In this document: piece by piece, positions 896-48,858 of the stretch
Layout of the letters: the number at the start of each line of letters is the position of its first letter
Numbering within the stretch: the first letter of the stretch is position 1
NCBI GenBank assembly: GCA_048940445.1
Contig: JBHLON010000027.1
Span: 1 to 48,858 of the forward strand
Reading direction: 5' to 3'
Length of the DNA: 48,858 nt
Source of the DNA: Promethearchaeota archaeon
GTDB lineage: Archaea > Asgardarchaeota > Lokiarchaeia > Sigyniarchaeales > SOKP01
Notes under the pieces: model-generated
Seen by the model: the letters and a program-made list of their open reading frames with translations, nothing else
Databases searched by the model: none
What the model was told of the DNA's origin: nothing
Position numbers and translations under genes: made by a program

Positions 896-960
896 ACAAA
901 TTTTTATATACATAACTATCATATAATCATATAACAGAAATCTAGTATAAATTGATTAGA
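896..960 (+). promoter_or_regulatory. Conserved promoter/leader, copy 1 (BRE-TATA-like ACAAATTTTTATATA ... CAGAAATCTA ... TTGAT)
   Basis: Same motif order and 65-66 nt spacing to ATG upstream of all three SBP genes. Confidence 0.7.
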
Positions 961-3084: not shown

Positions 3085-3087
3085 ATC

Positions 3088-3099
3088 TTTTTTTTTTTT
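3088..3099 (+). terminator. Poly-T archaeal terminator
   Basis: 12 T immediately after the stop at 3084. Confidence 0.6.
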
Positions 3100-3220
3100 A
3101 ATTTTAGACTTTTCCTTTGACAATTTCTATAAATATCTTTCTTATCTATAAGTGTATATTTTATGCTAGGAAATCTATTTATCTAATTATTCAACGATTT
3201 TTTAAAAAAAAGATTTAAAA

Positions 3221-3285
3221 ACAAAATTTTATATACACTTTTGATATATAATATTATACCAGAAATCTAATTTAAATTGATAAAT
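3221..3285 (+). promoter_or_regulatory. Conserved promoter/leader, copy 2
   Basis: ACAAAATTTTATATAC...ATATAAT...CCAGAAATCTA...AAATTGATAAAT-ATG(3286). Confidence 0.7.
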
Positions 3286-6200
3286 ATGATTCGAACTAAA
3301 CAAAAGATAATAGGTTTTCTAATAGTATCAATTCTATTAGTGAGTGCTAGCTTTATTCTATATAATCCACAGAGACTAAGCGAAATAACAGACAATTTCA
3401 GTGATAATCATAGTAACTTTAAAGATTATAGATCTTTTTTAAAACCTAGCCAAGGAGCTCCTTTTATAGTTGGAGTAGAATCGAGTCCCGTGGATCTCGA
3501 CCCCGTAAATTCATGGGACAGTGCTTCTAATGATGTAATAGAACAAGTTTGTGAAGGGTTATTTAGATATAATTTATCAGAGCCAAATATGCCGCGTATT
3601 AATTGGTTAGCAGAAGATTATCACTGGGAAGATGAAGTAACACTCCAGATAACTCTTAGGGAAGGTGTGCTTTTTCATGATGGTACCCCTTTTAATGCTG
3701 CAGCAGCGAAATGGAATCTAGATAGGCTATTATATCTTACTAATTGTTCTGGTACTCTTCCAATAACAACACCAATCGCAATAACAACTTCATTATGGAG
3801 ATTTCCAAATAGTACTGCAATAATTAATCAGGTTGACGTTATTAATCAAACTAGTATCCGTATTCATCTAAATGGAGCTTACGGCCCCTTCTTGGATTTA
3901 TTAAGTTATACTAATGCCTATATGCTATCACCTACATCCACTCCAGCAACTGATTATATTGACCTTTATACGGGAGATTTAGTGGGAACTGGTCCATTTG
4001 TGTATGATAGTTATACTCCTGATATAGAGACTAGTTTTCATGCTTTTGATAACTATTGGCAGGGAATGGCAAATATTAGTGAAATGGTGTTCTCAATAAT
4101 GTCTGATGCTAATACAAGAAATTCTGCTATGTTGGCATATGATATAGACTTTTTGCAGGGGCATCTTAATACTTATCTCCCCAGCTTCGAAGCAGATCCT
4201 GAAATAACCGTAATGCATTATACAGACACTTATGGTATCTCTAGTTTAATATACTATTATCTAGGGTTCAATAATGAAATAATAAATAAAACTTGGAGAA
4301 AAGCAATGTCTTATGCGATAAATTATAGTTATATTATAGATGTATTGCAAAACGGAGAGGTTGTTAGAGCTAATTCACCCATATCTCCCGGTTTTGGAGA
4401 TGCTTACAATTCTTCAACTAAGGCAGCGACGTGGAATTTGGCAAAAGCACGACAAATTCTTATAGATGCGGGTATTCCTGGTACAGCCGGACTAACTGCA
4501 AATAATGATACAACCGGATCTGTAGCAGACACATGGAAAGCAGCTAACCTTGCTTCATTTAATTATACCTATAATATCGGAAATGCTTTTAGAGAAGATT
4601 TAGGTGTCTTACTCGAAGAGAATCTTGATCAAATAGGAATTACCGTAACAGACGCTGGAATGACTTGGTCTGAGTTTCTTGATAGATTATTCTTCAACCA
4701 TGATAAATTAGAACTCTTTTGGATAGCTTGGGGTCCAGATTATTATGATCCCTATAATATGCTTTATCCAATATTTGATCCGAATTCAATTGGTAATTCT
4801 GCCCAAGTAAATGACGCTAAGTTAAATATTATGTTAGAAAGTGCATTACAAGAGACCAATGATGTTATTAGGGATAGTATTTATAGAAATATTCAAGGTT
4901 ATTTAGCCACACAATTATATCCACACGCTTTTGGTTATCATCCGAAAATTACTTATGTGTATAGCGTTAATTTAACCAATTATCCTCATAATTCACTGAA
5001 TAGATTATATTTCTATCCTTGTGAATGGAAGACTGGACAAGTTACACCACCACCTCCACCGCCACCGCCTCCACCTTCACCAATCTTTAAGGTGGGTGTA
5101 AGAACAAGCCCTGCAGAACTTGATCCTGTGAATACATGGGATAGTACTTCTATGGATGTTATAGAACAAGTATGTGAGGGCCTTTTTAGATATAATTTAT
5201 CAGATCCTAATTTACCGCGCATTAATTGGTTAGCAGAAGATTATCATTGGGAAGATAAAGTAACACTTCTAATAAAATTGAAAGAAGGCGTAATCTTTCA
5301 TGATGGAACACCATTTGATGCTACAGCAGCGAAATGGAATCTGGATAGACTGTTATATCTTACCAACTGTTCTGGTACCCTTCCTCCAACAACTCAACAG
5401 GCATTACCCAGTGAATTATGGAAGTTTCCAAATGGTACTGCGATAATTGATCATGTAGATGTAATTAATCAAACTAATATTCTAATTCATTTAAATGGAG
5501 TATATAGCCCTCTCTTAGATTTATTGACTTTTAATAGTGCCTATATGCTATCACCTACATCCACTCCAGCAACTGATTACATTGACCTTTATACGGGAGA
5601 TTTAGTAGGAACTGGTCCATTTGTGTATGATGGCTATATTCCTGATATTGAAACAGATTTTCATGCATTTGATAACTATTGGCAAGGAAAAGCAAATATT
5701 AGTGAAATGGTATTCTTAATAATACCTGATTCTATTGACAGAAACGATGCTATGTTGGCATATGATATTGATTTCTTGCAAGGGTACCTTAATTCATATA
5801 TCCCAAGTTTTGAGGTTGATCCCGAAATAACCATTATGCATTATACTGATAGTTATGGCATTCCGAGTTTATTATATCAGTATCTAGGGTTCAATAATAA
5901 ACTAATAAATAAAACTTGGAGAATGGCAATGTCTTATGCGATAAATTATAGTTATATTATAGATGTAATGCAAAACGGAGATGTTGTTAGAGCTAATTCA
6001 CCCATCTCTCCCGGTTTTGGAGATGCTTATAATTCTTCAACTAGGGCAGCGACGTGGAATTTGGCAAAAGCACGACAAATTCTTATAGATGCGGGTATTC
6101 CTGGTACAGCTGGACTAATTGCAAATAATGATACAACCGGATCTGTAGCAGATGCATGGAAAGCAGCTAATCTTGGCTCTTTTAACTATACTTATAATGT

Positions 6201-8043
6201 TGAGAATCAATTTAGAAGTGATCTATACATTGTATTAGCTGAATGGTTAGACCAGATCGGTATTACTTTAATTGATGATGGTGGTACTTGGGGTGACTTT
6301 CTCACGAAATTATTCATCTATCCTGATAAACTGAACCTCTTTTGGATAAGTTGGATACCGGATCATCTTGATCCTTATAATATGCTTTATTACTTATTTG
6401 ATCCGACTTCATTAACTAATTCTGCCCAGGTAAATGACCCACAATTGAATGCTATGTTAGACAATGCGTTAAATGAGATTAATGATGCTATAAGAGATAA
6501 TATCTATAAAGACATTCAAGGCTATTTAGCGACCCAATTATATCCTCATGCTTTTGGATTTCATCCGAAAATTACCTATGTGTATAGCGCCAATTTGACT
6601 AAATATCCTCACAATGCGTTTGATAGATTATATTTCTATCCTTGTGAATGGAAGACTAGAAAAATTACGCCACCACCTCCACCAACGACAGCTATAATCT
6701 TCATTGATGATGCTGATCCCAACTATAATTGGAGTAAAACTGCATTAGAAAATGATTGGTGCTCCGGTTCAGGAACTTTCAATGACCCATATATTATACA
6801 AGATATCGAAGTTGATGGACAATCTACATATAATGGGATTGAGATATACAATTCTAGTGTTTATTTTATGATCGAAAATACTACTATCTACAACTGTATT
6901 CAGTATGGAATTCACCTGGTAAATACATATAACTCAATCATTCATAATAACAGTATATATAATACTTTCTTTAGCGGTATCTTTTTAGAATCCAGTGATT
7001 ATCATACGATTTATGAGAACAAAATTTGGAACATTTCGGGATACTCGGGGATAACTTTATTTATATCTTCCGATCATTGTGAAGTGAGACAAAATTCAAT
7101 AGAGCTTAGCTATGCTGGCATCATATCTGTTTACGGATTTGATAACTTTATACATGACAATACTCTAATCAATAATTTCATGGGAATAGGTGTTGGAGCC
7201 GCTTATAATATAACACTGAAACTAAATCAAATAATAAGTAATACAATGGGAGGAATACTATTACAAGAAGCAAATGAAACTCTTGTTAAAGATAACTTCT
7301 TAACAGATAATCCAGCTTATGGGATACTTCTTATGGGTTTTTGGAATGGAAATAATGACAATGAATTTATAGGAAATCAAATTTATAACAGTGGCTTAGT
7401 AGGTTTAGCAGTTGATTCTACTTCGAATAATAACAAAATATATCTTAATACATTTATTGGAAATACAATAAACGCTCAAGATAATGGTACATTAAATGCA
7501 TGGGATAATGGATCAAAAGGAAATTCATGGGATGATTATAGTGGCGTAGATGCAAATGACGATGGAATAGGAGATACACCATATCTAATTAGTGGAGATG
7601 CAGGAAGTATGGACAACTTTCCTATTTTTGATGATGGTCCCGACATTGATACAATTCCACCAGTAATCATTATCAATGAGCCTGATAATGGAGAAGAATT
7701 TACCACAATAGCGCCAATTTATGAAATTGAGATTACTGAACCTAACTTAGATTCTGTGTGGTATACGATAGATGGAGGAACTACTAATATTACAATCACT
7801 ACCTTAACTGGAACTATTGATGATGATGCATGGAATGCTTTGCCTTATGGGACAATAACAATTACCTTTTATGCCAATGATACTGAAGGAAATACTGGAT
7901 ACGCTTCAGTGTTTGTGTACAAAAATGAACCTGTTAGCCCCCCGCCAGAAATCCCTGGAGCTGATCCTATTCTAATATTAGCGATATTATCTATTGGAAT
8001 AATCGGCTTATTATGGCAATATAGACTTAAAAAACCTAATTAA
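3277..8043 (+). CDS. Surface protein: two tandem family-5 SBP domains + NosD/CASH-type beta-helix + Ig-like domain + Loki-CTERM-type anchor; likely start ATG 3286
   Basis: SBP motifs repeated twice and separated by a poly-Pro linker; Asn-rich GI.L...N.I..N.I repeats ending in GN.WDDY.G.D.N.DGIGDTPY; PPPEIPG-TM-KK tail. Confidence 0.9.
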   Translation: MINMIRTKQKIIGFLIVSILLVSASFILYNPQRLSEITDNFSDNHSNFKDYRSFLKPSQGAPFIVGVESSPVDLDPVNSWDSASNDVIEQVCEGLFRYNLSEPNMPRINWLAEDYHWEDEVTLQITLREGVLFHDGTPFNAAAAKWNLDRLLYLTNCSGTLPITTPIAITTSLWRFPNSTAIINQVDVINQTSIRIHLNGAYGPFLDLLSYTNAYMLSPTSTPATDYIDLYTGDLVGTGPFVYDSYTPDIETSFHAFDNYWQGMANISEMVFSIMSDANTRNSAMLAYDIDFLQGHLNTYLPSFEADPEITVMHYTDTYGISSLIYYYLGFNNEIINKTWRKAMSYAINYSYIIDVLQNGEVVRANSPISPGFGDAYNSSTKAATWNLAKARQILIDAGIPGTAGLTANNDTTGSVADTWKAANLASFNYTYNIGNAFREDLGVLLEENLDQIGITVTDAGMTWSEFLDRLFFNHDKLELFWIAWGPDYYDPYNMLYPIFDPNSIGNSAQVNDAKLNIMLESALQETNDVIRDSIYRNIQGYLATQLYPHAFGYHPKITYVYSVNLTNYPHNSLNRLYFYPCEWKTGQVTPPPPPPPPPPSPIFKVGVRTSPAELDPVNTWDSTSMDVIEQVCEGLFRYNLSDPNLPRINWLAEDYHWEDKVTLLIKLKEGVIFHDGTPFDATAAKWNLDRLLYLTNCSGTLPPTTQQALPSELWKFPNGTAIIDHVDVINQTNILIHLNGVYSPLLDLLTFNSAYMLSPTSTPATDYIDLYTGDLVGTGPFVYDGYIPDIETDFHAFDNYWQGKANISEMVFLIIPDSIDRNDAMLAYDIDFLQGYLNSYIPSFEVDPEITIMHYTDSYGIPSLLYQYLGFNNKLINKTWRMAMSYAINYSYIIDVMQNGDVVRANSPISPGFGDAYNSSTRAATWNLAKARQILIDAGIPGTAGLIANNDTTGSVADAWKAANLGSFNYTYNVENQFRSDLYIVLAEWLDQIGITLIDDGGTWGDFLTKLFIYPDKLNLFWISWIPDHLDPYNMLYYLFDPTSLTNSAQVNDPQLNAMLDNALNEINDAIRDNIYKDIQGYLATQLYPHAFGFHPKITYVYSANLTKYPHNAFDRLYFYPCEWKTRKITPPPPPTTAIIFIDDADPNYNWSKTALENDWCSGSGTFNDPYIIQDIEVDGQSTYNGIEIYNSSVYFMIENTTIYNCIQYGIHLVNTYNSIIHNNSIYNTFFSGIFLESSDYHTIYENKIWNISGYSGITLFISSDHCEVRQNSIELSYAGIISVYGFDNFIHDNTLINNFMGIGVGAAYNITLKLNQIISNTMGGILLQEANETLVKDNFLTDNPAYGILLMGFWNGNNDNEFIGNQIYNSGLVGLAVDSTSNNNKIYLNTFIGNTINAQDNGTLNAWDNGSKGNSWDDYSGVDANDDGIGDTPYLISGDAGSMDNFPIFDDGPDIDTIPPVIIINEPDNGEEFTTIAPIYEIEITEPNLDSVWYTIDGGTTNITITTLTGTIDDDAWNALPYGTITITFYANDTEGNTGYASVFVYKNEPVSPPPEIPGADPILILAILSIGIIGLLWQYRLKKPN
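3463..6680 (+). repeat. Intragenic tandem duplication, 1623-nt period (SBP domain A/B)
   Basis: Constant 1623-nt offset; 4281-4547 vs 5904-6170 differ at 11 of 267 nt; 5000-5034 is identical to 6623-6657. Confidence 0.9.
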
Positions 8044-8052
8044 TTTTTTTTT
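8044..8052 (+). terminator. Poly-T archaeal terminator
   Basis: 9 T directly after the stop at 8043. Confidence 0.55.
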
Positions 8053-8083
8053 ATTACCTTTATTTCTAGTTTTTTTACATTTG

Positions 8084-8149
8084 ACAAATTTTTATAAACG
8101 TTTTTATCATATAATAGTTTTAACAGAAATCTAAAATAACTTGATCAAA
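8084..8149 (+). promoter_or_regulatory. Conserved promoter/leader, copy 3
   Basis: ACAAATTTTTATAAAC...TATCATATAAT...AACAGAAATCTA...AACTTGATCAAA-ATG(8150). Confidence 0.7.
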
Positions 8150-11100
8150 ATGATGAAGAAGTTAAAAAGTCAAGGTTATCTTTATTTATTATTAATTATC
8201 TTGGTAAGTTGTAATATAGGAACTTTCAATCCTGAAAGCGGAGAAAAAACTTTAGAGAAAACAGATAATACTTTATTAAAGTTAAAGAGCAACCAAGTAT
8301 CTGAACCATTCATTGTTGGTGTAAGCTCTGGACCCCATTCAATAGATCCTATTAATTCATGGGATTCTGCATCTGACAATGTAATAGTTCAAGTATGTGA
8401 AGGGCTTTTTCAATATAATTTATCTGATCCTTCTATGCCACGAGTAAATCATCTTGCAGAATCCTATTGGTGGAAAGATGACACCACTCTCCAAATAAAA
8501 CTGAGAGAAGGCATTTTTTTTCACGATACGTATCCATTTAAAGCAATTGAAGCTGCATGGAATATAAATAGAATTCTCTACTTTACAAATTCAAGTGGCA
8601 CACTTCCGGGAAATATGACCATTGCTGATCCCTCATCTCTATACTACTTTCCTGATGGCACACCTATAATAAACTCAGTTGCTACTGTTAGTGAATATAA
8701 TATCACCATTACCCTTAACAATCCTTATGGTCCTTTCTTAGATTTATTATGCTTCCCGAGCAGCTATATGGTTTCTCCTTATTCTACTCCAGCAGATGAT
8801 TACATAGATCTTTATACAGGTGATCTGGTGGGTACAGGTCCTTTCATATATAATGGATATACACCTAATGTTGAGGTTAATTTTACTGCATTTGACACTT
8901 ACTGGCAAGGAAAAGCAGATATCAATGATATGACATTTCTAGTACTTCTTGATTCAGTGTCTCGAAGTAATGCTATGTTAAATCATGAAATTGATTATTT
9001 GCAGGGTCCTATTCCATCAATGTTTCCAACATTTGAAGCAGATCCTAGTATAACCGTGATGAAATTTACTGATACATATGGAGTTCCCAGTTTAACCTAT
9101 AATTACCTTGGTATGAATAATATGCTTATTAATCTTTCTTGGAGAAAAGCTATCTCTTATGCTATTAATTATACATATATCATTAAAGAGTTAATGAACG
9201 ACTTAGCTATCAGAGCTAATTCACCCATCTCTCCCGCATTTGGGGCTGCTTATAATGCTTCAGTTGCAGCCGCAGATTATGATTTAGCTACTGCGAGACA
9301 AGTATTAGTTGATGCAGGTATTGCTCCTGGTTATCCAGTAAATTCTGATCCTAATGATCCTACTTGGTTAGCTGCAAATTTACTCACAATCAACTATACA
9401 TATAACCTAGGAAATAAGTTTAGAGAAGATATGTATGATGCCTTACATAATTGGCTTTCGGCCATAGGAATTTTCGTAGAGGATGATGGTACAACTTGGA
9501 GTGACTTTCTCATGAAATTATATGTTTATCCAGACAAATTAGGTCTATATTGGTCCGCGTGGATTCCTGATTTTAAGGATCCCTATAATTTGCTTGATGC
9601 ACTATTCTCTCCCTGGTCAGCTGGTAACTCTGCTCAAGTAAATGATGCCAAGTTAAATTCCATGATGGCAACTGCCCTAGCTACTGTAGATGATCCTGCC
9701 AGAAATGCAATTTATAAAAATATTCAATCGTATCTAGCTGAACGATTATATCCTCACTGCTTTGGATTCCATCCAAAAATAACAGAAGTCCATTCTTCAA
9801 GACTTTCTAACGTACCTTATAATGCATTTCTAAGATTGTATTTCTATCCATGTAAATGGACACTACCATTTCACATTTACATAGATGATTCTGATCCGAA
9901 TTACGATTGGAGTAAGACAGCCTTGGAGAATGATTGGTGTACAGGTTCAGGCAGTTGGGGTGACCCTTATGTTATATCAAATCTCGAGATTAACGGAATT
10001 AATCTAGTTGATTGTATTGAAATAAAGAATTCGAATGCCTATTTTGAACTGAGAAATTGTACGATTCATCAGGCATTGCAATATGGGATCAAATTATCCA
10101 ATACAAATAATTCATTGATTTATAATAATAGCATATATGACAATCCAATAGGTGGTTTATATGCGGAATACAGCAACAATCATAGCATTTATGACAATAA
10201 GTTCTGGAACATAACAAACGGTTATAACGGTTATGGAATCATGTTGTTTTTTAGTAATCACTGTGACGTTTTTCATAATACGATTACATTTAATTTTGCG
10301 GGAATTGCTTCAGGTTATAACTTTGATAGCCACATTTTTGAAAATACAGTGCGTAATAATACACTTGGAATTGTCACGGGATATGGTTCTAATACTACAA
10401 TTGAACTAAATGATGTAATAAGTAGTACACTTCATGGAATAGTATTACAAGAAACTAATGAAACCATCGTAAAAAATAATTTAATAATGCATAATAATTA
10501 CACTGGGATTTATCTCATCGGTTATACGACTGGAAATAATTATAATACAATTACCTCAAATCAGATATATAATAATCGCTTAGGTGTAGGCTTGAACTAT
10601 CTTTCAGATCATAATGTGATATATCTGAATGAGTTTATTGGTAACACAATAAATGCTCAAGATAATGGTACATTAAATGCATGGGATAATGGAGAAATTG
10701 GAAATTCTTGGGATGATTACGTTGGAGTAGATGCTAATGACGATGGAATAGGAGATACACCATATCTAATTGAGGGGACAGCGGGAAGTATGGATAATTT
10801 TCCTATTTATGAAGATGGTGTCGATTTAGCTCCCGTTATTACCATAATCTCACCAAATCCCTCAGATGTATTTGGAACTCAAGCACCGTATTTTGAAATA
10901 GATATAGAATCAGTAGCTTTAAATTCAACATGGTATACTGTAAATCATGGTGTAAATATTACTTTTCTAGGGTCTAGTGGATATTTAGATACAACAGAAT
11001 GGAGTGGATTAGGTAATGGAACGGTTATTATTACTTTTTATGCAAATAACTCAAAAGGAGTAATTGGTATTGCGGAAGTAATTGTATATAAAGATATCTT

Positions 11101-11488
11101 AGCACCAATAATTATTATAAATGCACCAGAAGCTGCAGATGAGTTTACCAGCTATGCTCCTATTTATGATATCACTATTCAAGAGGCTAATTTAGATACT
11201 ATGTGGTATACCATTGATAATGGGATCACAAATTTTACGATCACTCTCTATAGTGGAACGATCGATGAAACCGCATGGTTTTCTTTACCAAATGGGCAAG
11301 TTACGATTTATTTTTATGCGAATGACACTTTAGGAGATATAGGGAGTTCATATGTAATAGTGTTTAAAAATGAACCGATCACCCCACCACCAGAAATCCC
11401 TGGAGCTAATCCTATTTTAATATTAGTAATATTATCCATTGGAATAGCTGGGTTAATTTGGCAGTTTAAAAATAAAAAATTAAAATAA
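8141..11488 (+). CDS. Surface protein: family-5 SBP + NosD/CASH-type beta-helix + two Ig-like domains + Loki-CTERM-type anchor; likely start ATG 8150
   Basis: SBP domain most similar to gene 952-3084; beta-helix similar to gene 3277-8043; two P.I.I..P...WYT...G..I.FYAN repeats; PPPEIPG-TM-KNKKLK. Confidence 0.9.
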   Translation: MIKMMKKLKSQGYLYLLLIILVSCNIGTFNPESGEKTLEKTDNTLLKLKSNQVSEPFIVGVSSGPHSIDPINSWDSASDNVIVQVCEGLFQYNLSDPSMPRVNHLAESYWWKDDTTLQIKLREGIFFHDTYPFKAIEAAWNINRILYFTNSSGTLPGNMTIADPSSLYYFPDGTPIINSVATVSEYNITITLNNPYGPFLDLLCFPSSYMVSPYSTPADDYIDLYTGDLVGTGPFIYNGYTPNVEVNFTAFDTYWQGKADINDMTFLVLLDSVSRSNAMLNHEIDYLQGPIPSMFPTFEADPSITVMKFTDTYGVPSLTYNYLGMNNMLINLSWRKAISYAINYTYIIKELMNDLAIRANSPISPAFGAAYNASVAAADYDLATARQVLVDAGIAPGYPVNSDPNDPTWLAANLLTINYTYNLGNKFREDMYDALHNWLSAIGIFVEDDGTTWSDFLMKLYVYPDKLGLYWSAWIPDFKDPYNLLDALFSPWSAGNSAQVNDAKLNSMMATALATVDDPARNAIYKNIQSYLAERLYPHCFGFHPKITEVHSSRLSNVPYNAFLRLYFYPCKWTLPFHIYIDDSDPNYDWSKTALENDWCTGSGSWGDPYVISNLEINGINLVDCIEIKNSNAYFELRNCTIHQALQYGIKLSNTNNSLIYNNSIYDNPIGGLYAEYSNNHSIYDNKFWNITNGYNGYGIMLFFSNHCDVFHNTITFNFAGIASGYNFDSHIFENTVRNNTLGIVTGYGSNTTIELNDVISSTLHGIVLQETNETIVKNNLIMHNNYTGIYLIGYTTGNNYNTITSNQIYNNRLGVGLNYLSDHNVIYLNEFIGNTINAQDNGTLNAWDNGEIGNSWDDYVGVDANDDGIGDTPYLIEGTAGSMDNFPIYEDGVDLAPVITIISPNPSDVFGTQAPYFEIDIESVALNSTWYTVNHGVNITFLGSSGYLDTTEWSGLGNGTVIITFYANNSKGVIGIAEVIVYKDILAPIIIINAPEAADEFTSYAPIYDITIQEANLDTMWYTIDNGITNFTITLYSGTIDETAWFSLPNGQVTIYFYANDTLGDIGSSYVIVFKNEPITPPPEIPGANPILILVILSIGIAGLIWQFKNKKLK

Positions 11489-32768: not shown

Positions 32769-33389
32769 ATGGTTCAACTAAATAAGATCATTGAACAACT
32801 AAAAAAGATGCGAAATCTAATTCGTATAACTGTTGTGGGAGATGGAGCTGTAGGGAAAACCACATTAGTTCAAGCAATCCTGAGATTAACTCAAAATTGT
32901 GCCGAAATTCCCCCAGTTACTAATTTTATGGAAACTAAAAAAATTAGGCGTACTCCTTTCATAGAAATAGAATCATGGAATTATAAAGATCTATTAATTC
33001 AATGCTATGATCTAGCAGGACAAAGAAACCCAGGAGCTCATCCTTTAGATATGTTACAAAATCAAGTAATAGCCTCAATAGATATTTTTATCTTTGTTTT
33101 CTCAGTCGATAGATATGAATCTTTTGAAAATCTTAATAATTGGATGACACTGATGCATTTAAATAACCTATCTATAAATAAAAATAAAATGGGATTAATT
33201 CTTGTAGGAAATAAGATAGACTTAGTTAATAATGTATCAAAAGAGCTAATCCAATCGATAGTAGGAGAAAACAGATATTTTCATTCTTATGTAGAAACTA
33301 GTGCTACAAAAGGAGTTGGAATTGAAAATTTACTAGATGAGATAGCACATATTGGAAGGAATATTCTTAATACTTACATCAAGGACTAG
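32769..33389 (+). CDS. Small Ras-superfamily GTPase
   Basis: G1 GDGAVGKTT, G2 T, G3 DLAGQ, G4 NKID, G5 ETSA. Confidence 0.9.
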   Translation: MVQLNKIIEQLKKMRNLIRITVVGDGAVGKTTLVQAILRLTQNCAEIPPVTNFMETKKIRRTPFIEIESWNYKDLLIQCYDLAGQRNPGAHPLDMLQNQVIASIDIFIFVFSVDRYESFENLNNWMTLMHLNNLSINKNKMGLILVGNKIDLVNNVSKELIQSIVGENRYFHSYVETSATKGVGIENLLDEIAHIGRNILNTYIKD

Positions 33390-33430
33390 TTCATAGCTGT
33401 GAGATAACTAATTATAGATGATAAGATCAT

Positions 33431-35650
33431 ATGACCGAAATACATTGTAAGCTTTGTAATGAGAAAATTAGCTTTAATGTTCAAGACAAAGATACTTATT
33501 TACATAAAACTGAATCTGGAAATCCTATGATTGGAAAATTGTTTACTATACGCGTTGGACATCAAACTCGAGGAGGATTATTCCATATTAATGTTGTTGT
33601 TATTGATGAAAAAGGAGAATATCGCGCTCATAAAGATTATTATGAAGAAAAGGAAATAAAACAAAAATCCTTTGATAAATGGGAGAGATTAATACACCAA
33701 ATTCCAATTGAAATTAGGTTTTATTTAACTTTAGCAAATGATAATGAAAAAAGAATCTTATCTTCAATTACAGAACCACAAAATAAATCCGCAAGTGAAT
33801 TATATTATAATTTAGCAAGATTAAAACTTGAAAATCCATTTAGTCAGTTATTAAATTTCTTGGCTGTGAAATGGGGTTTTATAATTGGAAAAGGTAAATC
33901 CCTTTTACAAGAGGATTACAATTCAAATTCTTGGAGTTATCCAATATATTTACGTTTACAAGCAAGGTTTTCTCCTAAACCTGAACTTGTTGAGGCTATA
34001 AAAAGTTTAGATCTTAGCTCAGCTCCAGCCCTAATGCAATTAGAGGGTGCAATAGCCAAAACTGAGGTGTATCTTCGTTTAAGTGAATATAATTTATTAG
34101 AAGAGTTATATAATGAATCCTTAGAGAAATGGGGGAATGTTACTTCTATTGAAATGAAAACAGGTTGGATGTTAATACAAGGGTATTATGGTTTTAGCTT
34201 TTATTTTTTAGGAAATATCAATAAAGCAATAAAGTTAATAGAACCTGTCTTTAATTTTGGACAAATCATTGAGAATCGCGAAATAATTAATGTTGTTGGA
34301 AATTTTTATGCTGCAGTACTTCAATCCAGTGGAGATTTAGAAAAGACTTTGCAAACTTACAATATTGTTTTAAATGTAAGTGAGGATATGGGAGATGAGA
34401 GAACAAAAGCAGTAATTTCATCAAATATGTCTGTTGTTGAATCAAAACAAGGATTATATGATAAAGCTTTAGATCGTCAAAGAGCTATTTTAGAATTACC
34501 TATTGTCAAAGATGAATACTTCCTAAAAATGTCTCTCCAGAGTATCATAGCTGAAACTCTTTTTATCGCTGAGAAATACGATAAATCTATCGAATTGTGC
34601 AAAACTTTGATTCTTGATAAACATATGCCAACTAATTATAAGATTGATACACTTTCAACTCTGAAAAAAATAGCAGGTAAGACGAATTCTCCTGAATTAT
34701 TAGAATTTGTCAAAAATCACTTAATAGATGATAGAGAATTTGTAGAATCTCCAGTAAATCAAATTTTTAATTATGATTTACAGGCTATTAGTGCTAAGAT
34801 AGAGGAACATTGGGAAGATTTAGTTGAATACTTGAAAAAACAACGCGAAGTTATGTTTAATAACAATTTAATAGAAGATGCTAGTGATATTGAAATTAGA
34901 CTTGCTGAAGGTTATTTTAAATTATACCAGCAATTTGAAAAACTCGAAGATCTGAATCATGCATATAGTCATTTAGATCTTGCTAAAATGATTGCTTTAG
35001 AACGTCAAAACTATTTAGACTTATGTAGATTAGAGATTCTGAAAGGCTTACTTGCGAGTGAAAGTAAAGTAACTGAACAAGCAGAATTGAATCTTAAAAA
35101 TGCGCTAAAAATTGCTCGTGAGCATAATTTACAAAATTTAGAGACTCAAATTATTGAACATCTTGATCAATTAGAAAAAGGAATAATAGAAAAATCAGCA
35201 AGTTCATTTCTACGAAAATTATTTAATAGATTGTCGTTCAGGAAAGCTGAAGAAATAAAACCTAAACAGAAGGGATTAGTGTATTCAATAAGTATTACAA
35301 ATAAAGATTCAACCTGGAAATTGGTATTACAAAATGAAAAAGTAGGAGCTTCTGAATATACTTATTATTTATTAGGTTTCCGTGATTTATGGGAAGAATT
35401 AAGAAGGAGTAATTTTAAACAGCAATTCAATTATTTTAATGTAGATAAAGGAGCGGTGTTAATTGAGGATTCTCCCAATTTTCATTTAATCGCTTTATGC
35501 GACCAGTTAGATTACTTAACAAGATTAACAATTCAAAATATTTTACCATCATTAGAAGAATTTTCTTTTAAATATATTCCTGATGAGTTATCTGAAAAAG
35601 TGCTGGAGCTTCTCAATGATAATATCACAAGATTCATTAAAGTTGAATAA
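33431..35650 (+). CDS. TPR-repeat protein with N-terminal CxxC/His domain and C-terminal longin-like domain
   Basis: CKLC...H...H..V.ID..G; TPR-like helical repeats in the middle; C-terminal beta-beta-alpha-beta-beta-beta-alpha pattern (inferred). Confidence 0.65.
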   Translation: MTEIHCKLCNEKISFNVQDKDTYLHKTESGNPMIGKLFTIRVGHQTRGGLFHINVVVIDEKGEYRAHKDYYEEKEIKQKSFDKWERLIHQIPIEIRFYLTLANDNEKRILSSITEPQNKSASELYYNLARLKLENPFSQLLNFLAVKWGFIIGKGKSLLQEDYNSNSWSYPIYLRLQARFSPKPELVEAIKSLDLSSAPALMQLEGAIAKTEVYLRLSEYNLLEELYNESLEKWGNVTSIEMKTGWMLIQGYYGFSFYFLGNINKAIKLIEPVFNFGQIIENREIINVVGNFYAAVLQSSGDLEKTLQTYNIVLNVSEDMGDERTKAVISSNMSVVESKQGLYDKALDRQRAILELPIVKDEYFLKMSLQSIIAETLFIAEKYDKSIELCKTLILDKHMPTNYKIDTLSTLKKIAGKTNSPELLEFVKNHLIDDREFVESPVNQIFNYDLQAISAKIEEHWEDLVEYLKKQREVMFNNNLIEDASDIEIRLAEGYFKLYQQFEKLEDLNHAYSHLDLAKMIALERQNYLDLCRLEILKGLLASESKVTEQAELNLKNALKIAREHNLQNLETQIIEHLDQLEKGIIEKSASSFLRKLFNRLSFRKAEEIKPKQKGLVYSISITNKDSTWKLVLQNEKVGASEYTYYLLGFRDLWEELRRSNFKQQFNYFNVDKGAVLIEDSPNFHLIALCDQLDYLTRLTIQNILPSLEEFSFKYIPDELSEKVLELLNDNITRFIKVE

Positions 35651-41757: not shown

Positions 41758-44700
41758 ATGAAATCCATTGAGAAGAAAAAATCAAGTGAGAGAATTGAAC
41801 GTGCAACGACGTTTCTTACGAAACTATGGTGGTTTTTTGCTTTTTTAATCGGAATTCCAGTAACTATCTCTACAATTAGTTTTTATGTTTTCAATTTTAT
41901 AATAAGAGATATCTATATCTCTATTGGACTTTCGGTAGTTGTCTATTTATTTGCTCTTTTCATTTTTTACAAGAGTTTTGACCAATATCGAAATAAACCT
42001 TACTTTCTTAATAACAAAAATAATCTTAACGCAAGAATTCATACATTTTTTATAATTAGCAGCCTTGCGTTGATCGTTACTCCGATATTTATTTTTCTTG
42101 CCCCCGGAGGGTACTATTTTGAATTATTACCTCTCATTTCTTATAGTGTTTTATATAATATTATTTACTATTATAACTTTTATAAGCCAATTGAGGATTT
42201 TGATAGCTCTAAATTAATATTTAAAAGCGCTCTTAGTTTTAAAGCATCATTGAAGAAATTGCATAACATTGTACTCATTTTAAATTTTATAACTCAGATT
42301 TTTTTCCTGAGTTACGCATATTCTACAAAATTATCATGGTTATTTGCTTTAATAACAAATTTAATCTTCTATATTTATACTCTACTAACCACCAAAAATT
42401 TAAGAAATAAATTTAGGCTTGCACCCGAAAAATTAGAATTCGTCCTAAAGTATTTAATACTATTTAAGAAAAAGTTCACCATATCTATTCTTACCCTGAG
42501 TTTCGCGCTTATAATTCAATTACCTTTTGACTTTCTTATTATAAATGTCCTTTCTGGCGCGATTTACACCTATCTTGATTACATTATGATTGCATTTATC
42601 TCGATGATCTTCTTATTTTTGTACCTAAAATTAAGGATATACATTTCAATTTATTATAATAGGGAATCCTTCAAATTAATAGATCATGGTGTAAACAACA
42701 CAAATGAAGATTCTCTGGAATATCTAACAAAGTATCAAAGGTGGAACATGTTATTATCTTTATTTTTCTGTATATTCATCACCTTATTTTCATTTGGGAT
42801 CAATTTACCTTTGATAATCCTAATTTCTTACCCAGTCATCATTGTTATAACATATTATGAACAGAAGGCGAATTTTTGCCCTAGGAAGTATAGTCGCTAT
42901 ATCTTTTTATTCACAAGTATTGTTATCTTAAGCTTAATATTATTTTTACAAGTTTTTTCTCTCGAACTTCGAATAATTATACTTCTTCTAAGTATTTATT
43001 TGGATTTACAAATTTTTACTCATTATCAGTATTTTGATAAAAATAAAGTTGTCTTTGTCCAACATTTAATAGCCTTTACCTGTTTCTTAGTGATTACTTA
43101 CTTATTTTATCCAAATATTTCACTATTTTATCTTGAGCTGCCTATAGCTCCTTCGTTTTTAATTTTTATAAACTTTCTCATTTATACGCTATTAGTAAGC
43201 TTAGCTTTATTAGGTACATTCTATTATTTATATTTCCGTTATTTTAAGAGAAGCAAATGGGTACATTTTAGTTTAATTTTAAATATTGTTATTATCTTTG
43301 TCGAAATTCTTTCATATGTTCTAATAAATTTAAAGAACCTTTTTTCTTTAGAATTTGATATATTTATTAATTTTAGTCTAATAAGTACTATTTTTTTACC
43401 ATTAATTTTTGACTTATTTATTGGGCTGAATTATATTCTTAGAATAACCTCAAAAAAAGGATCTTTAAAGCAATTATACTATTCATGTTGGATTTTAATT
43501 GTAACAATATTTAGTTTTGCCTTTTATTTTTCCCTAAGTAATTACATATTCCTAATAGCTGATTTATTATACATTTCTATTTTTTCACAAATTTTACTTA
43601 AATTTGGAACGAAAATTGAGCAAGTAAACATTACAGCTTTCAAAAGATTTGTGAATTTTAACTCAATTTTAATTATTCTAGAGCTATATTGCCTAATATT
43701 CTCAATTATGCTATCAACTCTTACTTTTTTAGAAAATTCAAGTAATATTTTACTATCTTCGTATGTCTCATTAATTTCTATCGCATTTTTAATCAATATA
43801 TTTTTAAGGAGGATGATTTCAAAAGGAGTAATGCGCGTGATTAATTTGATTAGTTTATTGTTTTCCACAGGCATTATATTTTATTTTTTATATATTTATA
43901 CTCTTGGTTCTTTATTTATTATGATTGTTCCAAGTCTGTTTTCATGTATTTTCTTTTATATCTTTATTTTTTATCTTAAATCAATAAAATATGAATCTCT
44001 ATCAAAATCCTTATTTCTGATAAATACAATAATAGTATCCCTTTCTTTATCTCTTATACCTTCATTTTTTGCATTAGAAGATATAAAAATAGGATTAACC
44101 GTAGATGTTATTACAGTATTTAATCTAACTCTTTACATTATTATTGGAATATTATTCTTTATTACTATTTTCTCAAATCAGCTTAAAATTAGAGAAAGAA
44201 GGAGAAGATTTGCAATATTTATGCAAATTTTTATACTCTTTATCTTAACAGGAACTACAGTATTTTATTATTTTAATCTTATTTTTAGAGCTGCTTTTTT
44301 CGGAATTATAGTTCCTATAATCGCAACAGCAGCATTTCTCTTCATTCCTTTGATACTATTATACAAATTTCAATATATGAAAATTAATACTAGTAAAATC
44401 CTTATCCTTTTAGATTATCTTTTTCTCTGGGGAGCTTTTATGTCAATCCCGGTTAACTATTGTATAGAATTTATAAAGCAAGGCAATTTTGTTGAAATAT
44501 ATCTTATGATTACTCTATTGGTTATAATATTTTATGGTTTCTTAAAATCTATAACCCCTATATCAGAATCACTCAAATTAAGAGAGTCTTTTAATTATGT
44601 AATAAGAATAATGCAAATATGTATATGGTTTAGTATAGCAGTGATGATCTCATTGATTATTCCTCTTTTTCTTTTATTCCAACAATATTATTGGTTAAAT

Positions 44701-47700
44701 CTATTAATAATAAGTTGCACATTAATTGTTTTTTTCATTCTGAACATCGTAAATCTACCTCAATTAGAGAGTTTCAAGCAAAAAGTATTCGAAAACAAAA
44801 GGAGCAAATTGGATTTTTATAAAATTTACAAAATTTATGAATATCATAAGAATATTATTTATTTTGGATTAATTTTTTCAATATCCTTTTTATTTTATTC
44901 TATCTTCCGGGTTTTCAATCTAATTTATATAATTTTTCAATCAAATGATTTGTTATTAACGGCTTGCTTTAATATTGCAATCTTTTTGATCCTTACTTTA
45001 TTGTTATTGCATTTAACCAGTAAGGTAATTAGAATAGAATTTGTTAAAACAAGAGAAATAATTGAATTAATAATTTGGTTAGGTATAAAATTCAATGCCT
45101 TATTGTTCTTATCCTTATTACCTATTCAAATTTCACTTTATACCAGAATTTTTCTAATTCTTCTAGCGTTTGCTATTCAAAGTCCGATTACTATTTATTA
45201 TATCAACAAACACATGATTTTATTAGAAAACACCAAAACCCTCATGAAAGAATTCATAGGATTTTTGTTCTTTATATCTATATTAGGTTTTTCTATTGAA
45301 TATCTTTGGTATGTTAACAGCAACGTTTTATACTTCAGTGAAAATATCCCAATTCTTATTAGTTTTCTTTTCTGTCTAATTTTCCTATTTTCTAATCATT
45401 ATTTTATACATTTTAATGAATATATCCAAATGAGTAATACAATTAGAATATATAGATTATATTTAATTTCTTTTCTCCTATTAGGCCTATTTATCCTAAT
45501 GAATATCCAATTTATTTTGATATCTTTATTTATTATTGTTGTTATACTTTTTCTAAAAAGGAATAGAAATGTTATCTGGCAACTTATTAATTATTTAGTA
45601 ATTAGTTTTCTTAGTCTAATTGAAATAAATCTCTTTATATTAAAATTTAATTTACTCCCTATTATTCACCCAGGAACTTATGCATGGATATATTTTATAT
45701 CATTTATTTCACTTCTATTTATTTCCATTATCCTTAATCGCAAAAAAATTAATGTACTTGAGGAATTATTAGTAGATTTTTTAATTCCTTGTTTCATTTT
45801 TACTTCTGTTGTCATTTTCTTTCAAATTCCTATTTTTTATAATATAACAATTTCTATTAATATTCTACTCTTTTTAATAAGCTTTTTCTTTTATCGTAAA
45901 AAAGATAAATTATATATTTGGTTTATACGTCCATGTGTTTTATTATTTCTATTTAATCTAATAAGTGTTGGCTCTTATTTCATAATATTTAGCTTACCCC
46001 TCTATCTTAAATTTAACTTGATATTGAGTTCTACCCTAACTTTTAGCGTCATAGGCTTTTGTTTTGCTTTATTTTATCACAATTTAGAAAAGAAATTTAG
46101 AAGGAAAATAATCTCAATTATTCTTATTTTAAGCGTTATTAGTTCCTTCATATTTTCTTATCTCCTTATTGAAACCTCGTTTTCTTTACCCTTCATTTTT
46201 CCATGGTTGATTGCTGGTAATATTGCGATTATTTTATCATATTTATCTATTGGAATTTACCAATGGAGAATATCATGGGCAATTTGGAAGTCTGGGTATT
46301 GGATTTGGATATTTGTTCCAATCTTTAATTATCTATTAATTGCTCAATCATTTGCTGGAATTGATATCTACACTAATGCTCTAAATTTCTTTGGTTTAAG
46401 CATCTATGGTTCATATTTGATTACACTTGTCATTTGTTTATTACTAACATTGCCTTTTTGGTACACATGGATAAAAGACCATTTTAATATAGTTTTATTT
46501 ACTATTTGGGGATGTAGTTTATTTTTGATTTATTGGTTTAGTCAAAATGCTTTTTTTGGGTTTGATATATTGATTAATTTATCATTTGTAGGAATTTCTA
46601 TAATATTCCTTATGCCAATTTTTTATCGTTTACGTTTTTGGAAAATTCTATCAATTCTATGGCTGATATTCACTTCATTACTAATTATTTTTATCACGTT
46701 CATTTTATTTGCAGTTGGCTTCCTTTTAAACCTAATCATATCATTCGATTTAGTCTTAGGCGGATTTCTATTCATTATATTCTCCTTTTTTCCAAATTTG
46801 AAAGCAATGAAAAATGTTCTATTAATAATTGCTTACTCTGTAACGATGATTGGTATATTTTCAATAATATTAATCATCATGATCTCAATAACTTATAATA
46901 TCCCAATATCCATCAATATCTCTTTCATCATAATTGCTTTCAGTTTATTTTCTTCTCGCATCTTGAGATTAAACAAAAAATTATTCAATTTCTTAATTTC
47001 TACGATTTTAACAGCTAACTTCTCACTTCTAACATTCTTTAGTTTCCTTATGATCCCGAATTTTGAATTTTTCGCCTTATTTCTAGCCATAAGCATTTGT
47101 GGAGGATCTCTTCTTATATTTAATCGATATCGAATGTTTTCTCCTATTAAGATGATTATTCCTTTATCTATCTTATCCATAGGAATTTCCTTAACACTCT
47201 CCTCCTTGATGTATATCTTTTTGCCAAACTCATTTTTTCTTATATCTGCTGTGTTTGTTTCTATTATATTAATAATAAATTATCCTGTATTGAAATATAT
47301 ACGCCATATTCTATGGTACTCTATTCCTGTACCTTTTTGTCTGTTTATTTTACACTTCTTATCATTTTTAGAGCTTTTTCAATCATTATTAAATTTAACT
47401 TTAATTGGATTAATAATGTATACTCTAATATTCCAGATTCTTACAAATTTAATTTATGGTAACATTAAAAGCATAAATCTGTTAGCTTTTGTTTTAAATT
47501 CTACATACGTTTCAATATTTATAGCGATTCTTACCCCGTTATTTCTAATATATAAGATCCTTGAATTTTTCATAATCTGGTCTGTCTTGATTATATTCTG
47601 CATTAGATACGTTGAGAAGGGAGCGCTAGAGCTTTTTAAAAGTAGGACAATCACTATATTGATAAAAGTAAGCCGTTATATCGCATTATTTCTCCACTTT

Positions 47701-48858
47701 GAAATTGCTCTCCTTATTACTATTATCGTAAATGAAGTTATATTTCCCGAATTCACGAGCATTATTTTAGTTTTTTTTGGAAGCTTATTTTTATCATCAT
47801 TATTAGATCTTATTCTTATTAAGAAAGTTAGTAGCAAATTGATATATCCAATTAATGTGAGTTGCTACATTTTAATTTCAATTTATCTATTCATATTTCT
47901 AAATCGCTTTTTAGATATAAGTATACAATTCCTTTTCTTAAATCTGATAATATTATTGGTAATGCAATTTTATACCATAAAAATCATATTTTCTTTTTTG
48001 TATCAATTAGATCGTTATGATAAGGAGAAATTAACCTCTTTACAAAAAGTTGATCAAACGATCTTGCTAAATGTTATATTCTTAGTTATTAGTTTATTTG
48101 GTTCCTCTTATTTTACATCAATATTTATCAACGGTTCATTAGTACTTAGTGGATTACCATCTATTTTCTTATTCTTAATGATTTTTGGTTTTCTAATGTT
48201 TAACTTGAATCAGGTTATAAAAATTAAATTTAAACAAAAAGTGTTATTTGTTTATTACGTAATATTTATGGTAAGTTTTGTTTCTTTTTTTATCTTATAT
48301 ATGATAAGTTTCAATCTTGTCTCTCTTTTATATTTTAGCTTAATGTCCATCATTACTACTGTTTTGTTATCTTATCTTATCTACTTAATAAGCAAAATAT
48401 ATGTAGAAAAATTAGGAACTGAGGTTATTAAGAAAACTATTTCATTTTTGCAGTTTGTTCTTTACTTAGAAATTTCATTAATGTTCTATAGTCAATTTAG
48501 TATTTACTTTAATATATTCGAAAGTATCTTGATATCTCAAATAGTTTTATGTTCAATTTCATTAATAGAAATATATCTTATTAAAAAGGTAAAGCCTTCT
48601 TATATTATAATGATCCATACTATTAGCTATTTCAACATAAGTTGGACTTTATTTATTATGATATTTCAATTTACTTACAACTATTTTGGTTTAAATTTCA
48701 TTCTCTTCATATTAATGCAGTTCTATACAAATTATTCATACTTTACTACAAGATCTAAATTTAATCCAACTAAAAGACCACATTTTAAGAAATGGAAATT
48801 ATTCAGGCAAAAAATAATTGGATCTCTTTTCTATTTTGCAATACTAGCATATATTTAT
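41758..48858 (+). CDS. Giant polytopic membrane protein (at least 2367 aa, 3'-partial), function unknown
   Basis: ATG at 41758; I read the frame codon by codon to 48858 and found no stop. Starts MKSIEKKKSSERIERATTFLTKLWWFFAFLIG; F/I/L/Y/S-rich hydrophobic segments alternate with short K/R-rich loops. Absent from the ORF track because its stop lies outside the window. Confidence 0.9.
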   Translation, partial: MKSIEKKKSSERIERATTFLTKLWWFFAFLIGIPVTISTISFYVFNFIIRDIYISIGLSVVVYLFALFIFYKSFDQYRNKPYFLNNKNNLNARIHTFFIISSLALIVTPIFIFLAPGGYYFELLPLISYSVLYNIIYYYNFYKPIEDFDSSKLIFKSALSFKASLKKLHNIVLILNFITQIFFLSYAYSTKLSWLFALITNLIFYIYTLLTTKNLRNKFRLAPEKLEFVLKYLILFKKKFTISILTLSFALIIQLPFDFLIINVLSGAIYTYLDYIMIAFISMIFLFLYLKLRIYISIYYNRESFKLIDHGVNNTNEDSLEYLTKYQRWNMLLSLFFCIFITLFSFGINLPLIILISYPVIIVITYYEQKANFCPRKYSRYIFLFTSIVILSLILFLQVFSLELRIIILLLSIYLDLQIFTHYQYFDKNKVVFVQHLIAFTCFLVITYLFYPNISLFYLELPIAPSFLIFINFLIYTLLVSLALLGTFYYLYFRYFKRSKWVHFSLILNIVIIFVEILSYVLINLKNLFSLEFDIFINFSLISTIFLPLIFDLFIGLNYILRITSKKGSLKQLYYSCWILIVTIFSFAFYFSLSNYIFLIADLLYISIFSQILLKFGTKIEQVNITAFKRFVNFNSILIILELYCLIFSIMLSTLTFLENSSNILLSSYVSLISIAFLINIFLRRMISKGVMRVINLISLLFSTGIIFYFLYIYTLGSLFIMIVPSLFSCIFFYIFIFYLKSIKYESLSKSLFLINTIIVSLSLSLIPSFFALEDIKIGLTVDVITVFNLTLYIIIGILFFITIFSNQLKIRERRRRFAIFMQIFILFILTGTTVFYYFNLIFRAAFFGIIVPIIATAAFLFIPLILLYKFQYMKINTSKILILLDYLFLWGAFMSIPVNYCIEFIKQGNFVEIYLMITLLVIIFYGFLKSITPISESLKLRESFNYVIRIMQICIWFSIAVMISLIIPLFLLFQQYYWLNLLIISCTLIVFFILNIVNLPQLESFKQKVFENKRSKLDFYKIYKIYEYHKNIIYFGLIFSISFLFYSIFRVFNLIYIIFQSNDLLLTACFNIAIFLILTLLLLHLTSKVIRIEFVKTREIIELIIWLGIKFNALLFLSLLPIQISLYTRIFLILLAFAIQSPITIYYINKHMILLENTKTLMKEFIGFLFFISILGFSIEYLWYVNSNVLYFSENIPILISFLFCLIFLFSNHYFIHFNEYIQMSNTIRIYRLYLISFLLLGLFILMNIQFILISLFIIVVILFLKRNRNVIWQLINYLVISFLSLIEINLFILKFNLLPIIHPGTYAWIYFISFISLLFISIILNRKKINVLEELLVDFLIPCFIFTSVVIFFQIPIFYNITISINILLFLISFFFYRKKDKLYIWFIRPCVLLFLFNLISVGSYFIIFSLPLYLKFNLILSSTLTFSVIGFCFALFYHNLEKKFRRKIISIILILSVISSFIFSYLLIETSFSLPFIFPWLIAGNIAIILSYLSIGIYQWRISWAIWKSGYWIWIFVPIFNYLLIAQSFAGIDIYTNALNFFGLSIYGSYLITLVICLLLTLPFWYTWIKDHFNIVLFTIWGCSLFLIYWFSQNAFFGFDILINLSFVGISIIFLMPIFYRLRFWKILSILWLIFTSLLIIFITFILFAVGFLLNLIISFDLVLGGFLFIIFSFFPNLKAMKNVLLIIAYSVTMIGIFSIILIIMISITYNIPISINISFIIIAFSLFSSRILRLNKKLFNFLISTILTANFSLLTFFSFLMIPNFEFFALFLAISICGGSLLIFNRYRMFSPIKMIIPLSILSIGISLTLSSLMYIFLPNSFFLISAVFVSIILIINYPVLKYIRHILWYSIPVPFCLFILHFLSFLELFQSLLNLTLIGLIMYTLIFQILTNLIYGNIKSINLLAFVLNSTYVSIFIAILTPLFLIYKILEFFIIWSVLIIFCIRYVEKGALELFKSRTITILIKVSRYIALFLHFEIALLITIIVNEVIFPEFTSIILVFFGSLFLSSLLDLILIKKVSSKLIYPINVSCYILISIYLFIFLNRFLDISIQFLFLNLIILLVMQFYTIKIIFSFLYQLDRYDKEKLTSLQKVDQTILLNVIFLVISLFGSSYFTSIFINGSLVLSGLPSIFLFLMIFGFLMFNLNQVIKIKFKQKVLFVYYVIFMVSFVSFFILYMISFNLVSLLYFSLMSIITTVLLSYLIYLISKIYVEKLGTEVIKKTISFLQFVLYLEISLMFYSQFSIYFNIFESILISQIVLCSISLIEIYLIKKVKPSYIIMIHTISYFNISWTLFIMIFQFTYNYFGLNFILFILMQFYTNYSYFTTRSKFNPTKRPHFKKWKLFRQKIIGSLFYFAILAYIY

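Follow-up and report, generated by a model that had tools for sequence, protein, structure and literature searches.

A gene for a giant polytopic membrane protein at a contig end in a Lokiarchaeia genome and its relatives among Asgard archaea

The window analyzed here is a stretch of 48,858 nucleotides from a Promethearchaeota archaeon of the class Lokiarchaeia (assembly GCA_048940445.1, contig JBHLON010000027.1). At its 3' end (41758..48858, + strand) lies a gene for a giant polytopic membrane protein, and the first 2367 of its roughly 2825 codons are inside the window. The protein belongs to a family without a detectable relative of established function. Its chain of about 80-90 helices is arranged in alternating hairpins and is partly built of four-helix units of about 130 amino acids (aa), while three constrained parts (an N-terminal module, a Trp-rich core, and a C-terminal cap) are separated by stretches of variable length. 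The architecture is very probably a ribbon of helix hairpins, and a putative function as a passive, non-catalytic lipid scaffold or protector, probably closed into a ring, is given a probability of about one in three.

A truncated gene for a chain of membrane helices

The frame begins with an ATG and is stop-free up to the final base of the window, where contig C48 of a 3.64-Mb assembly of 139 contigs ends as well. Over the same positions the remaining five frames contain 123-301 stops each, and the probability of such an open frame arising by chance, given the base composition, is about 1e-77. The guanine-cytosine (GC) content per kb is 22.5-27% within the gene versus 24-37% in the rest of the window, and T occupies 53% of the second codon positions. 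Against two relatives at 76% identity, the ratio of nonsynonymous to synonymous substitution rates (dN/dS) is 0.16-0.17 for the whole gene, 0.09-0.12 for the first 310 residues, and 0.10 for residues 1330-1905; the neighboring enzyme genes (0.09-0.12) are similar to these conserved parts. It is confirmed that this is a real gene under purifying selection, truncated by the contig end. The first-pass annotation had described an AT-rich, stop-free frame of about 7.1 kb that continues beyond the window, and each part of this description was borne out. Orthologs are 2,825-2,839 codons long, and in the ortholog model the missing 460 or so codons supply 13 more helices and a long amphipathic helix; the genome's own assembly holds no overlapping contig or C-terminal piece that continues the gene. 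The 3'-open frame would explain why the gene was missed by the open reading frame (ORF) track.

Helices were counted by a 19-residue hydropathy rule with Kyte-Doolittle (KD) cut-offs and in AlphaFold2 models. The part of the protein in the window has 67 hydropathy segments at KD>=1.6 and 59 at >=1.9, and a full ortholog of about 2,825 aa has 82; the runner-up protein in the same genome has 15. The segment count is in part compositional: shuffled chains gave 51±3 segments (maximum 56) and 37±3 at the two cut-offs. When charge-free segment cores were required, 59 segments were retained in the real chain versus 30±3 in shuffled ones. Moreover, the K+R content of the loops alternates as in a positive-inside topology (lag-1 autocorrelation -0.44 versus -0.04±0.13 in shuffles), and hydropathy has a period peak at about 61 aa, the length of one hairpin. 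An AlphaFold2 model of the 576-residue core, made on an 82-sequence alignment, places 20 hydrophobic helices in residues 1330-1905, where the hydropathy rule counted 19, and K/R precede each odd-numbered helix and almost none of the even ones. From this we infer that the window encodes 67-75 helices and the complete protein 82-90, so that the 60-70 estimated by eye at first reading were correct or slightly low. The earlier statement that no soluble domain can be recognized also stands, because the longest polar run in the protein spans only 42 windows.

With these results at hand, the suggestion that the frame is an artefact, either a T-rich stretch that lacks stops by coincidence or a silent gene, retains next to no probability. 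Composition accounts for at least half of the hydropathy count, and the transcript data examined gave no proof of expression; however, a chance frame is already refuted by the chance estimate and the dN/dS values, the frame is intact in more than 100 genomes, closed genomes among them, and the core and C-terminus have confidently predicted folds.

Conservation along the chain peaks in the N-terminal module, in a charged loop near residue 1,010, in the Trp-rich core, and in the C-terminal cap. The N-terminal module (41758..42672, + strand; dN/dS 0.09-0.12) comprises about 305 aa and about 8 helices and is followed by a polar linker (42660..42720, + strand), which is the site of a two-gene overlap in split relatives and is fused here. 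Profile self-comparison found repeats spaced 131 and 251-254 residues apart that exceed the reversed control. The clearest pair of the ~130-aa four-helix repeat (44023..44592, + strand; residues ~756-815 and ~886-945) scores 47.1 against a reversed-profile maximum of 21.1, and a pair 251-254 aa apart (47746..48858, + strand; residues ~1997-2116 and ~2251-2367) scores 34.6 and 35.2 against the same control maximum of 21.1. Between the two lie the conserved charged loop, with the motif FEN..SK.D.Y (44764..44868, + strand; probably cytoplasmic, judged by its basic residues), and the conserved core (45745..47472, + strand), whose 20 helices are paired in hairpins with a predicted local distance difference test (pLDDT) score of 90.4 and a predicted template modelling (pTM) score of 0.71. 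Within the core, a Trp/Pro/Asn-rich block with invariant W, P, and N (46243..46557, + strand) contains broken helices and one short beta-hairpin (residues ~1542-1549) in the model, and is the best candidate for a binding site or interface. The conserved charged residues of the core are found at helix ends and in loops, and its conserved mid-helix polar residues are Asn and Gln.

The C-terminal part was modelled from the last 435 residues of the ortholog, which form 13 hydrophobic helices (pLDDT 90.7, pTM 0.58). A basic amphipathic helix of 39 residues with a hydrophobic moment of 2.27 lies near the C-terminus, and a basic turn of 3 residues connects the last two helices (2760-2789 and 2793-2822). 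Between lineages, blocks of about 174-220 aa have been inserted or duplicated, and in some genomes a block of about 185 aa ahead of the C-terminal cap is tandemly duplicated (L111:13132-14931 and L112:13190-15016), a recent expansion in length.

Distribution, split forms, and a probable sister family

When 153 other genomes of the order were searched with a core profile, the giant gene was detected in 115, in almost every case as a single copy; one genome of a neighboring order gave a weak match. Several near-complete genomes of the same family yielded no such gene (genus g23, found in 0/2; genus g27, in 1/10). Within its range the gene is single-copy and vertically inherited, and a plasmid tblastn search gave no match. 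Full-length members range from 2,676 to 4,920 aa and have 71-116 segments. They include DSAG12_00898 of Promethearchaeum syntrophicum (3,940 aa), NEF87_002906 of Lokiarchaeum ossiferum (3,146 aa) together with a 4,920-codon paralog, and a protein of H. repetitus (4,296 aa). Among 1.84 billion protein representatives there were 56 matches, of which the named ones are hypothetical proteins of Promethearchaeota. Keyword searches, in which most subscription journals were not covered, found no published description of the family, and its locus tags and accessions are absent from the papers searched. The earlier proposal of an undescribed Asgard protein thus agrees with a family that is Asgard-restricted and has homologs in the cultured Lokiarchaeia P. 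syntrophicum and L. ossiferum. Four close homologs at 44-61% identity (P0100, P0103, P0133, P0142) carry the NCBI labels 'Thorarchaeota' or 'Hodarchaeota'; these are probably mislabelled bins, and such labels are therefore unfit for delimiting the range of the family.

In 18 of 76 tree-placed genomes, the first ~312 residues are encoded by a separate gene that overlaps a second gene carrying the remainder. The tree demands three or more independent splits and one or more re-fusions, with one deeper node unresolved, and the fused clade of the window is sister to a split clade (support 0.99). Because the cuts recurred at a single junction and the parts were reunited in at least one case, the covalent link to the N-terminal module is dispensable. 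A programmed frameshift at the junction was considered and rejected, because nearly all split copies have a Shine-Dalgarno-like motif and an ATG, GTG, or TTG start ahead of the stop, and because products of ~312 aa are listed by gene callers for dozens of metagenomes. Other irregular forms were also seen. One genome has a shorter second paralog of 1,043 aa and 26 segments with the N-terminal module at its start (L137:126-3254), and two giant frames are interrupted by a single in-frame stop and are otherwise intact (a TGA at L040:11423-11425 in genome G038, and a stop at L131:10532-10534 in G384), which may be an assembly error, a recent break, or read-through.

Further searches with the profile of the N-terminal module gave weak matches (E ~1e-4) in four genomes of another class. 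Three of these start frames of more than 2,000 codons and the fourth starts such a frame broken by one stop; all are hydrophobic throughout. They belong to a Thorarchaeia-type family of 2,000-2,300 aa and 51-67 segments that was found in 25 genomes, several of them labelled Thorarchaeota by NCBI; TFG09799.1 is one such protein. Comparison of the two families by hhalign aligned their first helices (P 6.9e-5, reversed control 0.11) and, independently of the route of discovery, their last hairpins (P 4.7e-5, reversed control 0.046), while the middles of the chains gave no clear alignment (best P 0.012 versus 0.051 for the reversed control). In reciprocal searches with hidden Markov models (HMMs), the N-terminus scored above the best background of its own proteome in 10/23 and 12/148 cases, and the C-terminus marginally above its own-proteome background in 4/23 and 1/148. 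Moreover, an Arg is invariant in the last helix of both giant families, and the member from the neighboring order combines a Loki-type core with a Thor-type C-terminal motif. Judged from these alignments, the Loki-type and Thorarchaeia-type families are probably homologous, sharing detectably only the first helix and the last hairpin. Against 83 genomes of a third Asgard class the terminal profiles gave noise only, with none in a frame above 1,100 aa.

A proposed hairpin ribbon, possible docking of its ends, and other candidate functions

In the favored explanation, the hairpins would stack sideways into a long ribbon within the bilayer, a membrane counterpart of an alpha-solenoid. This architecture is preferred because the chain has repeats and tolerates changes in length, and a compact transporter would rarely grow in such a way. 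The N-terminal module would dock on the C-terminal cap, so that the ribbon closes into a ring or copies are linked head to tail, and ring size would vary by lineage. Such a ribbon would fence, bend, or stabilize a patch of membrane while acting passively on lipids, and it may sequester membrane-damaging lipids at the Trp/Asn core, in the manner of the bacterial protein Arc3A (discussed below) and without membership in that family. Passive action is suggested by the lack of an ATPase, a catalytic domain, conserved mid-helix charge, and a fixed partner. The widest form of this hypothesis is a long shot. It would join Lokiarchaeia and Thorarchaeia in an old Asgard family of membrane solenoids, single chains with 50-115 or more helices each, closing end to end into lineage-sized rings that fence off or open a membrane domain as a one-polypeptide ring scaffold or large pore; the rings would be perhaps 10-20 nm across, a rough estimate at about 1 nm per hairpin.

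Docking of the ends was tested because conservation across classes is confined to the two ends and because the N-terminal module survives the loss of its covalent link; conserved ends in both families would be expected if they form a conserved interface. Complex prediction for the C-terminus and the N-terminal module gave an interaction prediction score from aligned errors (ipSAE) of 0.39, against 0.00 for the best of three controls, with runs agreeing in at least 89% of contacts and a partner pLDDT of at least 74. Among 80 solved complexes 58 attain this mark, and among 110 mismatched pairs 2 do. The prediction lends weak support to end-to-end docking, since the range at 0.60 or under holds only 7 of the 80 solved complexes together with both mismatches, and docking is regarded as a little less probable than an even chance.

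Several points weigh against the ribbon, its docked ends, and its role on lipids. The docking score lies in a range that the tool calls more often wrong than right, the docked chains were taken from two orthologs that are 76% identical, and covariation among 78 full-length members was dominated by phylogeny and did not confirm docking. The shape of a ribbon or ring is itself inferred rather than observed. No sequence similarity to DUF2339, the family of Arc3A, was found, and profile comparison with 10-15 DUF2339 sequences stayed at background. Ester phospholipases are not known to act on the ether lipids of archaea, so that the analogy with Arc3A is not literal. As for expression, a published value of 152 reads per kilobase per million mapped reads lies low in an almost flat range, 109-375 in the part of the table covered. 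An RNA run of P. syntrophicum behaved like DNA, with contigs of 38-50 kb and flat depth, and confirmed the intact frame and not its transcription; the supplement texts for L. ossiferum, which are possibly incomplete, do not list the locus. Finally, the invariant W, P, and N and the broken core helices would also fit a pore or a substrate site, and this block is the main argument for reading the protein as a channel or as a transporter.

In Piezo1 and Piezo2, each chain has many four-helix repeat units, a long amphipathic helix before the terminal helices, and an extracellular cap. A channel or tension sensor of this kind, in which the four-helix units would form a Piezo-like blade and helices of the core or C-terminus would line a pore in an oligomer or inside a closed ribbon, could account for the ~130-aa repeats, the amphipathic helix ahead of the last helices, the broken core helices with invariant P, N, and W, and the invariant Arg in the last helix of both families. 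However, the conserved core is placed mid-chain rather than terminally and lacks conserved mid-helix charge, no cap domain separates the last two helices, and no Piezo family is matched in Pfam. A channel is considered unlikely, and a Piezo-like one in particular is disfavored by the 3-residue basic turn found where a cap would stand and by the missing Pfam match. A role in moving a large substrate (a lipid, lipid-linked glycan, or peptide) as a transporter, flippase, or insertase, with translocation by the core while the rest of the chain serves as a collecting fence, is distinctly unlikely. Its appeal is that the strongest constraint falls in one central block (dN/dS 0.10) with conserved mid-helix Asn and Gln, and that single copy and wide retention suggest a housekeeping role. 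It would have to be reconciled with the large variation in length and with the lack of a nucleotide-binding domain or a conserved energizing partner nearby.

Neighboring genes bear on the two remaining functions. A family 4 glycosidase, an aminotransferase, and a small gene of 4-5 helices are common neighbors only within the family of the window; in other families the neighbors of the giant gene are unrelated, and since they differ from family to family there is no obligate partner. Downstream of the giant gene, the genomes of this genus share a conserved gene of about 185 aa (L021:13947-14498, with equivalents in L022-L039, L115, and L120) that encodes 4-5 hydrophobic segments and matches no Pfam family. 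The next genes are TrmB-like, GyrI-like, and a second family-B polymerase, and the small gene could be either a partner or a case of synteny alone. An SPFH/flotillin gene (DSAG12_00897, L095:4117-5439) stands before the giant gene in P. syntrophicum, and ORFs of similar size precede the giant gene in two more genomes, in that genus only. Elsewhere in the window, three tandem family-5 solute-binding protein genes of 710, 1588, and 1115 aa are located at 952-11488, two of them fused to NosD-like beta-helix domains and one having two binding domains, and at 32769-35650 a Ras/Roc-like small GTPase gene directly precedes a gene for a 739-aa TPR protein.

The flotillin neighbor, the amphipathic helix, and the presence of the gene in P. 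syntrophicum, with two copies in L. ossiferum, could point to a dedicated shaper or anchor of the long Lokiarchaeia protrusions that couples curvature to the actin cytoskeleton. This reading, which takes up the link to cell morphology suggested in the first-pass annotation, is improbable: the flotillin neighbor is confined to one genus, no cytoplasmic domain is big enough for a folded adaptor, and the gene was found neither in some near-complete genomes of the family nor in the 83 genomes of another Asgard class. More improbable still is a defense or exclusion factor that would serve as a barrier or decoy in the membrane when viruses, mobile elements, or contact-delivered toxins attack. The precedent of Arc3A in inter-microbial defense, patchy loss in some genera, and faster evolution outside the core would be compatible with such a factor, whereas its single copy and the stable synteny that it keeps with adjacent metabolic genes on the chromosome throughout a large family would not, and no defense-island context was seen (PADLOC was not searched).

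Whichever function applies, the number of helices is more than double that of characterized polytopic chains, at near-full helix density, and this raises the question of how an archaeal translocon inserts and folds 80-115 helices in one chain. Single copy in most of a large Asgard order, together with the probable sister family, suggests that the protein may represent old Asgard membrane biology. If true, a one-polypeptide ring scaffold or large pore would have no described counterpart. New in the present analysis are the probable sister family, the finding that the gene was split repeatedly, the idea that the two ends dock, and the comparison with Arc3A. Since cultured species carry locus tags for the gene (DSAG12_00898 and NEF87_002906) and protein accessions (QEE15075.1 and UYP46621.1), proteomics, antibodies, and tomography are feasible now, and the naturally split forms offer a ready two-part construct.

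Comparison with known proteins

Searches for a full-length match to a characterized family, by Pfam, PDB profiles, and folds, found none. No Pfam family was matched by the giant protein at E<=0.1 and nothing recurred among 82 core members; this includes the transporter superfamilies (MFS, ABC, RND, APC, and Mrp/complex I), for which fold searches were limited to the core and C-terminal models. The best PDB profile match was a SWEET-type chain (E 0.0027 over 80 residues), followed by designed helical bundles, and these were read as generic hydrophobic matches. Foldseek gave no match at E<=0.001 for either model, and VIA-align matched only 3-4 helices (Z<=9.1), the background for helical proteins, which does not imply that the fold is new.

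To our knowledge, Piezo is the largest membrane protein among well-characterized ones. The giant protein resembles it in the 131-aa and 251-254-aa repeats of four-helix units, which do not imply homology, and in the long amphipathic helix before the terminal helices. It differs in having about twice as many helices and in lacking large loops, any Pfam or sequence match, and a cap where the last two helices are joined. PDB profile searches of both ends returned no Piezo chain, and Piezo was absent from the fold-search results for the core and C-terminal models, although this does not exclude it.

According to one survey, very few proteins reach 32 or more membrane helices (PMC6851277). Giants of Omnitrophota, with 56-331 predicted helices (10.64898/2026.06.07.730766; 10.1101/2023.11.21.568195), are likewise prokaryotic single chains with many predicted membrane helices. 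However, such helices make up about 2% of their residues and they contain many soluble enzyme domains, whereas the Asgard giant is more than half membrane helix and has no soluble domain. A weak pointer from the ESM Atlas leads to the hairpin-rich membrane proteins of DUF2157 (PF09925) and of unnamed bacterial clusters. One unnamed Chloroflexota cluster matched residues 325-576 of the core model with a template modelling (TM) score of 0.61 by target and 0.31 by query (root-mean-square deviation, rmsd, 4.9). These proteins differ in being short (250-680 aa) and uncharacterized, and no sequence link to them was found among 1.84 billion proteins.

In the feature search of the ESM Atlas the top scores (0.89 and 0.85) belonged to unnamed clusters, and the nearest named family was DUF2339 (0.79, with 102/256 features shared), both as leads only. 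A partial shape match to DUF2339 (TM 0.47 by target, 150 residues, rmsd 4.6) is likewise only a lead, as predicted models stand on both sides. PF10101, the Pfam entry for DUF2339, was matched by neither P0001, P0002, nor the 82 core members, and it scored no giant gene in 301 Asgard genomes. With hhalign, DUF2339 gave background-level values (P 0.02-0.05, probability ~1-2%) from an alignment of only 10-15 sequences. Under better structure comparison the giant family could prove to be a far variant of the DUF2339 kind, although this is regarded as less likely than not. Separately, one Lokiarchaeia bin encodes a 972-aa DUF2339-like protein (L189:196-3114) that has no profile link to the giant family; it shares 34-37% identity with proteins among which one is from Ca. 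Protochlamydia, representing gene transfer or a misbinned contig.

By analogy, the closest characterized counterpart would be Arc3A (PA5114) rather than Piezo. This DUF2339 protein of Pseudomonas aeruginosa has 35 predicted helices, a number and density called unusual, and no evident catalytic residues, and it prevents the build-up of lysophospholipid under phospholipase attack (PMC8926400). Its protection has been confirmed, and it acts alone across species (PMC8926400, PMC12663445). The giant family resembles Arc3A and its PF10101 relatives in being very large and polytopic, with end-to-end helices of variable number and no evident catalytic residues. It has no PF10101 match and no profile similarity above background, and it differs in its ~80-115 helices versus 35, in a host with ether lipids, and in the lack of an Arc3B-type partner with the giant gene. 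The conserved, separable N-terminal module and the Trp-rich core are specific to the giant family.

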